Below are positions 53,009 through 57,405 of a stretch of DNA of 64,000 nucleotides, piece after piece. The DNA lies in IMG/VR virus record IMGVR_UViG_3300021373_003510, positions 1-64,000 of that record; one strand, written 5' to 3'. A program made the position numbers and the translations under genes. Within the stretch, counting starts at the first letter, position 1. Each line of letters opens with the position of its first letter. This DNA comes from a virus. The notes below the pieces were generated by a model. That model was not told where the DNA came from, searched no databases, and saw nothing but the letters and a program-made list of their open reading frames with translations.

Positions 53009-54838
53009 ATGGCAGAGAATAAAGATCAAATAGTAGAACGCCTAACGGAGGAAGGACTCTTATTAAGAAATAAGGGTACTAATTCTCTTAAGTCAGTTAA
53101 AGATAGAATAGGCGATTTAGATACAAAGTTTAGCGGAGTACTAAATTCTATTTCAATGCGCACTGGTGAAACTGCTCGTGCTTTAGGTTCAATTGAAAGT
53201 TATTTAATAACAGGAAATACTATTGCTAACGAAGGTCTTAATGAGCTTGCTGATAGAATAGACACAACTAACGAACAAGCAAAAGAACAAGCCGAAGATC
53301 AAAGACAACAAGATCAGGAAAACAGAAGACAAGAAAACGAAAATAGAAGAGAAGGGATTCTTCAAAATCCATTTAGTGCCATCATGGGAGACCTTGATAA
53401 TTTAAGAAAGGATATAAGACAAAAGCCTGGAGAAACTTTATTTAAAGGATTGAAATATGCGTTCCTTGCTCCTATCTTAGCAGGTGCGGTAAAAGGAGTA
53501 TTAGATTTAACATTTGGAGAAGGTTGGATTGATTCTCCGATTATGCAATTAGTTAGAGAGAATCCTGCTAAAGCTTTAATTGGAGCATTCGTTGCATTTA
53601 AGGCAGTTGATTGGATTGCGATTGGCGCATCTATTACATCAGCTATGTTATCTCTTAAAGCAATGGCCATGTCGAACGGCGGAAGAGGTGGACCTGTTGT
53701 TGCTCCTGGTGCTCCGGGAGCTCCTGGCGGTCAGGGTTCAAAGGGTAGTAGGTTAAAGAATTTCTTAAAAGGCAATAAAGGTAAAGTAGGTTTAATTTTA
53801 GGAGGCACAGGTTTATTATTATACGGCAACGAATTCTTTGACGGTGATGATGTCAAAGATGTTGAATCTGAAGTAAAAAGAATTAATCAAGAAGCAACTG
53901 CAGATGAACAGCGTGTTATTGATGAAAAATTAACAAGTTTTGAAAAAGAAAGAACAGGACTAGGCGATGCTTTAATTGACGCAACGACAGGTGCAGGTAT
54001 TGGTTTCCTTACAGGTGGTCCTGTTGGCGCATTGGTTGGTGCTGCAGGTGGTCTTGCCTTTACTTTGATTGGAAGAACATGGGAAGCCATTGATGATTCT
54101 ATGAATGATATTGATGCTATACCTAATGATATTGAGCAAGCATTACGACAAGAAACAGCAGCTCTCAATAGAAGAAGAAATAAATTATCAGCAGAACAAC
54201 AAGTAGAGCTATATAAAACTACTAACGCGGCAATTGAAAAAACAATCAAAGATCTTACTGATGAAACTGGTACAATGGATGCTGACATTGCTGCATTAGA
54301 AGGTGTTGATTTTGAAGCCGGCGTTACAAGAAGAACAGGCGGAAGATCTGGTAGGGAAATTACAGAGTTTGAAGTTAACGGCGAAATGTTAGAAAGAAGT
54401 GAAATAGAGAAAAAGCTACAAGACCTTAAAAATGAAAGAATATTAAGAGAAGAACAACTCGTTGCTTCAAGAAGAATTTTAGAATTAAGACAACAAGAAT
54501 CCGAAGCAGTACAAGAAAATATTAATGCACAAGGAGAAGCAACTGATACTGTTGCCGCAGTTGCCGATGAAGTACTTAAAAAGACAGGTACTAATCCTGA
54601 AATTGATCCTGACACAACAACAAGAGAAAGAGATGTTAGAACAACACAAACTGGTGGGTTTGCTTTTAATACAGTAAATAATTACTATAATAAAGGTGGT
54701 GATAACATTATGACAAACAGTTCTGATAACAGATCAAATGTTAGTAAGAATGTTGGTGTTGTTGTAAATGGTGGCGGTGGTGGAGGAAGTCGTTTCTCAG
54801 GTGGATTAATTGGTCCTAACGGACAAGCTATGGGATAA
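53009..54838 (+). CDS. Tape-measure-like protein (gp29-like, 609 aa)
   Basis: Helical/coiled-coil with Gly/Ala-rich hydrophobic segments; directly after gp26/gp51; size similar to T4 gp29. Confidence 0.65.
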   Translation: MAENKDQIVERLTEEGLLLRNKGTNSLKSVKDRIGDLDTKFSGVLNSISMRTGETARALGSIESYLITGNTIANEGLNELADRIDTTNEQAKEQAEDQRQQDQENRRQENENRREGILQNPFSAIMGDLDNLRKDIRQKPGETLFKGLKYAFLAPILAGAVKGVLDLTFGEGWIDSPIMQLVRENPAKALIGAFVAFKAVDWIAIGASITSAMLSLKAMAMSNGGRGGPVVAPGAPGAPGGQGSKGSRLKNFLKGNKGKVGLILGGTGLLLYGNEFFDGDDVKDVESEVKRINQEATADEQRVIDEKLTSFEKERTGLGDALIDATTGAGIGFLTGGPVGALVGAAGGLAFTLIGRTWEAIDDSMNDIDAIPNDIEQALRQETAALNRRRNKLSAEQQVELYKTTNAAIEKTIKDLTDETGTMDADIAALEGVDFEAGVTRRTGGRSGREITEFEVNGEMLERSEIEKKLQDLKNERILREEQLVASRRILELRQQESEAVQENINAQGEATDTVAAVADEVLKKTGTNPEIDPDTTTRERDVRTTQTGGFAFNTVNNYYNKGGDNIMTNSSDNRSNVSKNVGVVVNGGGGGGSRFSGGLIGPNGQAMG

Positions 54839-54872
54839 AAAATAAGGGACCCGAAAGCCCCTTATCTTTGTT
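54838..54872. terminator. Bidirectional intrinsic terminator
   Basis: ATAAGGG-acccgaaagc-CCCTTAT hairpin with an A-run on the left and a T-rich tail on the right, between convergent genes. Confidence 0.8.
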
Positions 54873-54874
54873 CA

Positions 54875-55039
54875 TTAAGCGACCCATTTCACACCGCGGT
54901 AAATTCCTTGCCGCTGTGCTTTAGATGGCTTACTTAGATTTTCGCTTTTCCAAGATACACCACGATAGACACCAGATTCAGTTTTTCTGGTTTCTTTCTT
55001 AGGCTTGTCTTGAACTTTGATACCTCTATAATAAGTCAT
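54875..55039 (-). CDS. YRG-repeat peptide (DUF4278-like, 54 aa); true start 55039
   Basis: MTYYRGIKV...GVYRGVSW...GIYRGVKWVA has three YRG motifs; GGAGG RBS at 55046-55050. Confidence 0.85.
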   Translation of the reverse strand: MTYYRGIKVQDKPKKETRKTESGVYRGVSWKSENLSKPSKAQRQGIYRGVKWVA

Positions 55040-55101
55040 ATCATGCCTCCAGTTTTCGTTTCGATTTCGTACATACAACTTTCGTTGCACACCCTTCTCA
55101 A

Positions 55102-55217
55102 CGCGTTCCTTCGGTATAACTGTCGGTCTCGTTCGGCAGAACGCCTACTTGCTTCCCCACAGAACGTGGGAGGTTTTCAGGTTATCCTACTTCCGCTATA
55201 TTTCTATAGTGAACGTA
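55102..55217 (-). ncRNA. Glutamine riboswitch-like RNA (glnA/glutamine-I type) with an enlarged P3
   Basis: 5' CGTTCA, P2 CTATA-GAAA-TATAG, CGGAAGTAGG, then 3' CCGAAGGAACGC. P1 is CGTTC/GAACG with an AGUA/GAA E-loop. It sits upstream of a YRG peptide, a known context for glutamine riboswitches. Confidence 0.8.
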
Positions 55218-55233
55218 TTACTATATATATCGG

Positions 55234-55761
55234 TTAACCTTTTGGTCTAGGACCAAATTTCAAATAAGCAAGAACTTTTTCAGGAGCAGTTTCACCATAC
55301 GGATCCGACTGACAATTATCAATCATTCCTGGCTCAGTGAATAATTTTTCAACTGTACCATTATCTACAACCATAGCATATCTCCAAGATCTTCTTCCAA
55401 AACCAAGATTGTCCTTTGCGACTAACATATCCATGCCAGCCGTGAACTCACAAGATCCATCAGGAATGAATTTTACATTCTTAACTCTTAGATCTTCAGC
55501 CCATGCATTCATAACAAAAGCATCATTACAGGAGACACAATATACTTCATCAATGCCTGCTGCAATAATCTCGTCATATAATACATCAAAGCCTGGAACT
55601 TGATTATTAGAACAAGTAGGTGTAAATGCGCCTGGCAGCGAAAATACTACTACTTTTTTATTGTCAAAATAGTCTGCAGTTGTTGGATGTGTCCATTCGA
55701 CTTCTCCAGTATCTACATTTCTGCTTCTTACTTTGAAAGTTACGTTAGGTACTTGTTTCAT
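55234..55761 (-). CDS. Peroxiredoxin (Prx5/type II-like)
   Basis: VVFSLPGAFTPTCS active site; VSCNDAFVMNAW; LGFGRRSWRYAMVV. Confidence 0.95.
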   Translation of the reverse strand: MKQVPNVTFKVRSRNVDTGEVEWTHPTTADYFDNKKVVVFSLPGAFTPTCSNNQVPGFDVLYDEIIAAGIDEVYCVSCNDAFVMNAWAEDLRVKNVKFIPDGSCEFTAGMDMLVAKDNLGFGRRSWRYAMVVDNGTVEKLFTEPGMIDNCQSDPYGETAPEKVLAYLKFGPRPKG

Positions 55762-56352: not shown

Positions 56353-56360
56353 TATTTATA
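56353..56360 (-). promoter_or_regulatory. T4-type late promoter TATAAATA overlapping the dUTPase stop codon
   Basis: Exact match immediately upstream of the hsp20 leader. Confidence 0.75.
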
Positions 56361-57397: not shown

Positions 57398-57405
57398 TAT
57401 TTATA
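57398..57405 (-). promoter_or_regulatory. T4-type late promoter TATAAATA upstream of regA
   Basis: Exact match in the gp62-regA intergenic region. Confidence 0.65.

Follow-up and report, generated by a model that had tools for sequence, protein, structure and literature searches.

A stretch of viral DNA of 64,000 nucleotides (nt), positions 1 to 64,000 of the IMG/VR record IMGVR_UViG_3300021373_003510 and here called the window, carries a self-contained cassette at 55229-54837. Its sequence shows a putative promoter of late type, then a leader of 180 nt, a DUF4278/YRG gene of 54 codons and a terminator-like hairpin. A redoxin-like gene on the same strand ends at 55234, just upstream. All cassette coordinates given below refer to the minus strand of the window, and the individual features are collected in Table 1. 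The leader was found to hold a glutamine-I (glnA-type) aptamer with a P3 helix that is extended and capped by a nested module, and this insert-bearing leader is a real, widespread variant of the glutamine-I riboswitch class. The elements listed in an earlier sequence-only reading of this DNA were all recovered at their places on the minus strand.

Table 1. Features of the leader cassette in the window, in order of transcription
Feature	Position	Strand	Evidence
Late-promoter-like octamer TATATATA	55222..55229	-	1 mismatch (7/8) to T4-type TATAAATA; 6 nt upstream of P1
Glutamine-I (glnA-type) aptamer, including P3 insertion and linchpin C (55103)	55103..55217	-	RF01739 43.3 bits; R1 105.1 bits; all consensus junction nucleotides present
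P1 5' strand CGUUC	55211..55215	-	Pairs with GAACG 55108-55104
P2 hairpin CUAUA-GAAA-UAUAG	55196..55209	-	All 5 pairs change on both sides among homologues
J2/3 CGGAAGUA (main loop-E strand, 55195-55188) and GG opening P3	55186..55195	-	Rfam consensus match; nearly invariant
P3 extension 5' strand AUAAC	55181..55185	-	Pairs with GUUAU 55120-55116; A55115 bulged
Nested module, 56 nt: GAAAACCU linker, hairpin A, G-AAGC-A junction, loop-E arm with hairpin B, GAAC-GAGACCGA	55123..55178	-	R2 61.4 bits
Hairpin A CCCAC-GUUCU-GUGGG	55156..55170	-	5/6 pairs change on both sides; 94% of cells paired
Loop-E arm: AGUA 55149-55146, hairpin B GGC-GUUCU-GCC 55145-55135, GAA 55134-55132	55132..55149	-	AGUA/GAA invariant; hairpin B covaries
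P3 3' CC, GAAG (main loop-E strand, 55112-55109), P1 3' strand GAACG	55104..55114	-	Rfam consensus match
Platform rod: P4 (CGUU 55103-55100 with AACG 55060-55057) enclosing GAGAAGGGU, P5, GUACGAAAUCGA	55057..55103	-	P4 covaries at fixed position
P5 hairpin GUGCAAC-GAAA-GUUGUAU	55073..55090	-	6/7 pairs change on both sides; 96.5% of cells paired
AAAACU spacer and Shine-Dalgarno GGAGG (55050-55046)	55046..55056	-	(A/G)AAAC-(U/C)GGAGG after P4 in type-A and type-B leaders
54-codon open reading frame with three YRG motifs (DUF4278, IF17-like), stop included; AUG 55039-55037	54875..55039	-	Pfam PF14105 32.1 bits, cut-off 25.3
Intrinsic-terminator-like hairpin AAGGGGC-UUUCGG-GUCCCUU, then AUUUUUU	54837..54863	-	Direct sequence reading

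The Rfam Glutamine model RF01739 matched 55217-55100 above its gathering cut-off of 35 bits (43.3 bits, E 2.8e-8, model positions 1-53 of 53) when 451 nt were searched with relaxed filters, which bears out the glnA-type frame proposed by the sequence-only reading. In the alignment, 69 nt fell in the P3 loop as inserted sequence. A default Rfam gathering scan of the whole window returned no match, a miss caused by the filters that is not evidence of absence, and a profile search of contigs with RF01739 gave only a partial match of 23.5 bits. The other Rfam family that had been put forward for comparison, Downstream-peptide (RF01704, glutamine-II), matched neither the leader nor the module at E values up to 10. 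Homologues were assembled as 84 distinct aptamers from marine phage contigs and SAR86 genomes, and the aptamer of the window was also recognised by R1, a covariance model of our own. Positions 2-5 of the P1 5' strand (GUUC) and the opposing GAACG were invariant in 84/84 homologues, and the first C of CGUUC was kept in 82/84. In the solved structure the glutamine site consists of the two outermost pairs of P1, of a base triple with the G of CGG and of a long-range capping pair (PMC6698751); all the glutamine-site nucleotides named there are present in the window, the G of CGG being 55194. The segment GAAGGAACGC and the linchpin C, directly 3' of P1, were likewise invariant (84/84 each), and GGAAGUA and GAAG form the main loop-E at the junction. 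In this three-way junction all pairs of P2 and P3 showed changes on both sides among homologues, with 18 distinct P2 stems among 40 sequences. We therefore assign 55217-55103, as judged from its sequence and pairing pattern, to the glutamine-I (glnA-type) aptamers.

The P3 helix departs from the family model. Instead of the short hairpin of 3 base pairs (bp) with a loop of about 4 nt in the Rfam model, 69-71 nt lie between GUAGG and CCGAAGG. The whole helix pairs GG and AUAAC (55187-55181) with GUUAU, A and CC (55120-55113), and its extension covaries (AUAAC/GUUAU, AAAC/GUUU, UAGA/UCUA, AAGA/UCUU, UAAAG/CUUUA, GAC/GUC). The insertion does not touch the ligand site. The extension is followed by a linker CUGAAAACCU, hairpin A, a GAAGCA junction, AGUA, hairpin B, GAA and C-GAGACCGA-CA, so that the P3 that had been described as not a simple hairpin proved to enclose a conserved, structured nested domain with two covarying hairpins. 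Among 76 distinct modules, 27 columns were invariant, comprising GAAAACCUC, GG, AGC, AGUA, GAA and GAGACCGA. The AGUA and GAA strands, already noted as a second E-loop, were invariant in 84/84 homologues beside the covarying hairpin B (CG/GC/AU/UA), and by its sequence this arrangement corresponds to a loop-E, or sarcin-ricin-type, motif. An extra U in AGC[U]AAGUA accompanied an extra A in GAAC[A]GAG in 25/25 of the sequences carrying either (of 84), also separating near-identical pairs such as L002 and L003, which differ only there. This co-indel argues for a continuous arm of hairpin B, loop-E (AGUA/GAA), A·C, (U-A) and C-G. The two identical GUUCU loops were present in the window as reported; they were not conserved in the homologues, in which the loops of hairpins A and B varied in sequence and length, and they are thus a trait of the lineage of this phage. 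A resemblance to the Bacillaceae-1 RNA (RF01690; 16.4 bits against a cut-off of 35, E 1.8) rested on these loops and was rejected because they are not conserved. The window lacks one junction nucleotide at 55155-55154 (G-AAGC) that is kept in all 83 other homologues (GNAAGC). A close strain, represented by contigs of low depth from three runs of RNA libraries, has this additional base, at 55152.

The module was found only inside glutamine-I frames. R2, a model of the module alone, identified a single copy in the window and exactly one copy in each of 44 of 151 SAR86-order genomes, always within a full-length R1 match, and all real matches to the module pattern in viral and genome contigs were located within glnA frames. 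The module is accordingly not an autonomous sensor unit. An exact-pattern scan for the glnA frame with a P3 filling of 50-80 nt identified 75 viral contigs, of which 72 carried the module and 3 had tandem aptamers, and a scan for the invariant words of the module recovered at least 118 viral contigs. Applied to 596 gigabases of genome contigs, the module-only pattern was too loose and only matches with glnA flanks were kept: about 108 of the 120 listed matches were due to chance, and at least 12 were real.

The proposed pairing was strongly supported by the homologues. In a plain MAFFT alignment of the 84 sequences, 90.2% of the cells of P1, P2, P3 and hairpins A and B were paired, compared with 70.3% in shuffled alignments. 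The covariation score of 0.447 (0.139 shuffled) was reached in 0/500 shuffles, and controls with the pairing partners slid by 1-3 columns scored at most 0.114. Covariation among homologues, the lack of which the sequence-only reading had named as counting against its proposal, is strong. Re-alignment fitted to R1 gave 93.1% paired cells and a score of 0.508, and the 11 strongest pairs in a mutual-information scan were all helix pairs. RNAalifold recovered the structure from the MAFFT alignment in part only, and single-sequence folding of the window leader was uninformative (z = -0.69).

Downstream of the aptamer, the expression platform forms a rod in which P5 lies inside P4, flanked by conserved purine-rich strands. 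P4 always starts at the linchpin C, which, together with the 2-3 nt behind it, pairs with 3-4 nt ending 6 nt before GGAGG. Nine distinct complementary versions of P4 were identified, including CGUU/AACG, CUA/UAG, CAU/AUG, CGU/ACG, CAAU/AUUG and CAUAGG/CCUAUG. The hairpin that had been seen ahead of GGAGG (P5) was confirmed and covaries; on 33 distinct platforms of this kind (type A), 91.9% of the P4 and P5 cells were paired versus 75.9% in shuffled alignments, with a covariation score of 0.495 versus 0.194 (0/500 shuffles). In other platform types the linchpin C and a pyrimidine tract pair directly with the Shine-Dalgarno sequence over 9-15 bp. All platforms therefore share one logic, in which the linchpin C is held in a helix touching the ribosome site. 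The module, with its 27 invariant positions, precedes at least four unrelated platforms, in phages and in SAR86, which links it to the aptamer rather than to a particular platform. The cargo was equally constant, as a YRG open reading frame followed in 127/127 loci that had an insert-bearing aptamer and a readable downstream frame. Glutamine riboswitches usually control genes of the DUF4278 family, to which IF17, an inactivating factor of glutamine synthetase, belongs (PMC6212724). Ahead of its start codon the YRG frame stays free of stops across the platform, as far as a GTG at 55090 (55037-55090), and some SAR86 leaders have an in-frame AUG within P5. Translation from the upstream in-frame GTG or TTG codons was rejected, as spacer and indel lengths among homologues are not multiples of three and P4 and P5 covary at the RNA level.

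The distribution of the variant points to SAR86. R1 detected the full form in 44/151 sampled SAR86-order genomes, and many others carried plain, often tandem, aptamers. The insert-bearing form was absent from 151 sampled cyanobacterial genomes searched with R1, which contained plain aptamers only. Among the matches listed, all of the at least 12 real genome-contig matches belonged to SAR86-cluster or related gammaproteobacterial assemblies. At these loci, on contigs that reach hundreds of kilobases, a sigma-70-type promoter precedes the element and a YRG gene of 52-54 amino acids comes after it. The whole cassette, i.e., module aptamer, type-A platform and a YRG gene of this length, is common to the T4-like phage of the window and SAR86-cluster chromosomal contigs (L138, L145, L153, L166, L167, L171, L182, L183, L207, L212, L227 and L249), with a peptide identity of 37-51%. 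To judge from the sampled genomes, the cassette is of SAR86 type and not a cyanobacterial element. A cyanophage origin was not supported either: the clamp-loader protein gp44 of the window phage was closest to that of Methylophilales phage Melnitz (55.8%, versus approximately 52% for Synechococcus phages), and no psbA was found in the 78-kilobase record, which is itself only 36% complete. None of 50,697 GenBank phage records matched the leader in a blastn search at E 1e-5, and what appeared at E 10 was attributable to chance.

Plain glnA aptamers, single or tandem, were also observed in SAR86 upstream of two kinds of glutamine synthetase gene (Pfam Gln-synt_N, Gln-synt_C) and of open reading frames of 43-46 amino acids. 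The type I glutamine synthetase was represented by L265 and L278 and the second type by L270, L271, L272, L273 and L274, and the glutamine synthetase leaders share a conserved CGUUAAAC...GAGUUUAA...CCUGCAGA segment. In the SAR86 genome G033, two abutting plain glnA aptamers (L276:57-389, plus strand) take the place of the nested one and precede the same type-A platform (GAGAAG...P5...GAGAACUGGAGG) and a DUF4278 frame of 54 amino acids. Tandem and nested arrangements thus appear interchangeable ahead of this gene.

A near-consensus late promoter had been proposed ahead of the leader by the sequence-only reading. The octamer TATATATA is indeed located there and is its sole copy within the window. 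The closest relatives (L013, L018, L029, L032 and L036) have an exact TATAAATA at the same position, 6-7 nt before CGUUC, and L073 has TATATATA at the corresponding site; a late-type promoter is plausible. Other homologues showed sigma-70-like promoters, the phage cassettes using either the TATAAATA type or the sigma-70 type. An exact TATAAATA was also observed at 56353-56360, just before an hsp20-like gene (start 56266), and at 57398-57405, just before a regA-like gene (start 57338), all on the minus strand, so that neighbouring genes seem to use T4-type late promoters. Across the window the motif was not enriched (7 observed versus 8.2 expected). Many phage homologues (among them L011, L012, L015, L017 and L001) carry an extra, covarying-looking hairpin (e.g., GGUAUUCAAUCGAAUACC) between TATAAATA and P1; this element is absent from the window. 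The terminator-like hairpin at the end of the cassette was not listed by a consensus terminator scanner.

Three seawater RNA libraries (X16-X18) contained short contigs (146-399 nt) with a mean depth of hundreds to thousands, which matched only the conserved platform at 55013-55116 and continued into the module sequence of relatives. Contigs over neighbouring phage genes had a depth of 4-11. Parts of the stretch left uncovered in these libraries carry no information. The libraries hint that related YRG cassettes are very abundant seawater RNAs, the contigs giving no level, strand or ends.

The leader was compared with the riboswitches described so far. Its P1, J2/3, loop-E and linchpin nucleotides are identical to those of glutamine-I RNAs (RF01739), as known from the gifB/IF17 leader of Synechocystis sp. 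PCC 6803 (PMC6212724) and from the Synechococcus aptamer 5DDP (PMC6698751, PMC5393176). It shares with them the three-way junction with covarying P2 and P3, the location in the 5' untranslated region of a DUF4278 (IF17-like) gene, and a helix after P1 in which the linchpin C takes part and which extends in the direction of the ribosome site. In contrast to these RNAs, P3 is an extended stem that ends in the conserved module, two-armed and with a second loop-E, a conserved rod of P4 and P5 serves as platform, Rfam default filters miss the RNA, and the variant occurs in SAR86 genomes and marine phages and not in the sampled cyanobacteria. The glnA RNAs and their tandem forms were described by Weinberg et al. 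2010 (PMC2864571). Like the tandem riboswitches, which are found in the same organisms and phages (L008, L019, L070, L265 and L273), the window leader has more than one glnA-like unit; whereas tandem forms are complete aptamers side by side, an incomplete unit, with neither P1 nor linchpin, here lies inside P3 of a complete one. Glutamine-II RNAs also control YRG/DUF4278 peptides and share the ligand-site chemistry of glutamine-I (PMC6698751), but have a pseudoknot architecture and occur in marine picocyanobacteria. Within the part of the 2010 glnA alignment considered here (PMC2864571, Additional file 4, glnA.sto), at least 13 ocean-metagenome sequences have the same module, a type-A platform and a YRG frame, and there the module stands as unaligned and unannotated loop filling. 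One 2025 paper lists RF01739 matches in SAR86. The literature searched, which did not extend to Ames and Breaker 2011, contained no description of the structure, conservation or taxonomic origin of the module.

Drawing on the parallels with the aptamer of known structure and with the gifB switch of Synechocystis, we hold with moderate confidence that the cassette is a SAR86-type translational ON switch, operated by competition between linchpin capture and P4, of which the module is an integral accessory part of the aptamer. According to the published model, the ribosome site is blocked by a helix containing the linchpin C and the nucleotides next to it, and this short helix, which is attached to P1, melts when glutamine binds (PMC6212724). 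A P4 that begins at the linchpin C fits this model, and the leader is read as a translational ON switch on that ground. Binding of glutamine would capture the linchpin C in a long-range G-C pair, its capture would melt P4, and melting would open the region ahead of the Shine-Dalgarno sequence and turn translation on. The P3 helix points away from where glutamine binds (PMC6698751) and shifts strongly upon binding; in the RNAs used for crystallisation it had a loop of foreign origin (PMC5393176). An unrelated P3 insertion of about 75 nt was observed in a cyanobacterial glnA aptamer (L279; G232:C5:202927-203054, minus strand of that locus). The foreign crystal loop and this insert suggest that the P3 tip is permissive; an appendage placed there would also be moved by the ligand. 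The module would most probably be a peripheral domain of this one mobile helix and modulate folding, affinity or the extent of the conformational change.

Several points weigh against this interpretation. The mutual-information scan identified no covarying long-range contact beyond the helices, and hence no sign of docking. Thermodynamic folding alone recovered the extended P3 in 13/84 sequences, so that the support for it comes from covariation and not from predicted energy. The glutamine response and ON polarity of the variant are carried over from its relatives, the transcription start of the leader is putative, and the type-A P4 does not itself cover the Shine-Dalgarno sequence; how its melting would admit the ribosome is a guess. 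Moreover, about 27 conserved and mostly unpaired module nucleotides are equally expected of a pocket for a ligand or a protein.

This last point bears on a second sensor, since invariant nucleotides framed by freely covarying helices typically mark a binding pocket. Loop-E motifs are common protein-binding sites. The module could respond to another small molecule or to a protein (for instance a nitrogen regulator or the YRG peptide itself), and the leader would then integrate two inputs or act cooperatively. The tandem of plain aptamers that replaces the nested one in SAR86 genome G033 suggests that the module may substitute for a second aptamer, and RF01739 aligns the module to P2, J2/3, P3 and GAA. 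The sequence-only reading had suggested a second aptamer-like or protein-binding module, possibly a two-input or cooperative sensor. As a second glutamine aptamer the module can be ruled out, since it has neither the P1-like ligand helix nor the linchpin that make up the ligand site in both solved glutamine riboswitches (PMC6698751) and, taken alone, scored 12.3 bits against the cut-off of 35, over model positions 9-43 only. In that alignment hairpin A took the place of P2, and AAGUA, hairpin B and GAA those of J2/3, P3 and GAA, while P1 and the linchpin had no counterpart; a CUC/GAG helix of 3 bp at most could serve as P1, and the U/A co-indel argues instead for C-G pairing in the loop-E arm. 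The resemblance to part of an aptamer is perhaps one of descent. Sensing of any other kind must also accommodate a module that is never autonomous and occurs once per genome, with no candidate partner encoded adjacent apart from the YRG peptide. We consider a second sensor unlikely, and a second input independent of the first, whether a non-glutamine metabolite or a protein (the YRG peptide, glutamine synthetase or a PII-type regulator), slightly less likely again. If true, it would be a natural two-input (or autoregulated) riboswitch, with one three-way junction nested in another, used by SAR86 and copied by phages.

The module might instead belong to the platform, its invariant ACCUC sequestering GGAGG at low glutamine and being withdrawn into the folded module on binding. 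In the type-A leader no tract other than CCUC is complementary to the Shine-Dalgarno sequence. CCUC does not vary, and leaders of types A and B have GAAAAC ahead of it as well as ahead of UGGAGG. However, 15/87 distinct leaders keep an identical module ahead of a Shine-Dalgarno sequence without GAGG (GGAGA, GGGAG), with which CCUC is unable to pair, so it cannot be a universal anti-Shine-Dalgarno element. Several platforms have a long one of their own directly after the linchpin C, the proposed pairing amounts to only 4-5 bp across approximately 120 nt, and both of its sides are invariant, which leaves no room for a covariation test; we regard this role as quite improbable. We rate as slightly less credible again a kinetic function, in which the invariant GAAC would trap the P1 5' strand as a decoy while the RNA is being transcribed, delay the true P1 and set a time window for glutamine sensing. 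Minimum free energy folds of transcripts cut just after the module did pair the 5' GUUC with the module GAAC in 72/84 homologues, but this follows from invariant letters already explained by loop-E, involves only 4-5 bp closing a large multiloop and has no independent evidence, and translational switches need no kinetic control. That the insert is a neutral passenger, a functionless relic of a partial aptamer duplication, would be in keeping with the tolerance of the P3 tip for foreign sequence (the crystal constructs of PMC5393176 and the unrelated 75-nt insert of L279) and with the weak resemblance of the module to P2-J-P3 of an aptamer. It is hardly credible, given that the 27 invariant positions and the compensatory changes in both hairpins persist across phage and SAR86 lineages whose P2, P3, platforms and peptides (37-51% identity) have diverged. 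Taken together, the module is probably neither an independent sensor nor an anti-Shine-Dalgarno element, and we retain the accessory domain of a translational glutamine switch as the preferred interpretation.

The described variant raises the question of what role a conserved loop-E three-way junction plays at the tip of a helix swung by the ligand. Glutamine riboswitches have been treated as small cyanobacterial elements of about 60 nt, and the RNA presented here represents a subclass twice as long, with a strongly conserved extra domain. As default Rfam scans miss it, censuses undercount glutamine riboswitches of this form. The variant is common in SAR86, among the most abundant heterotrophic bacteria of the surface ocean, and in marine T4-like phages. 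Since the whole cassette is common to SAR86 and uncultured phages, it is a possible indicator of the host for phages of SAR86, a group without a cultured representative.

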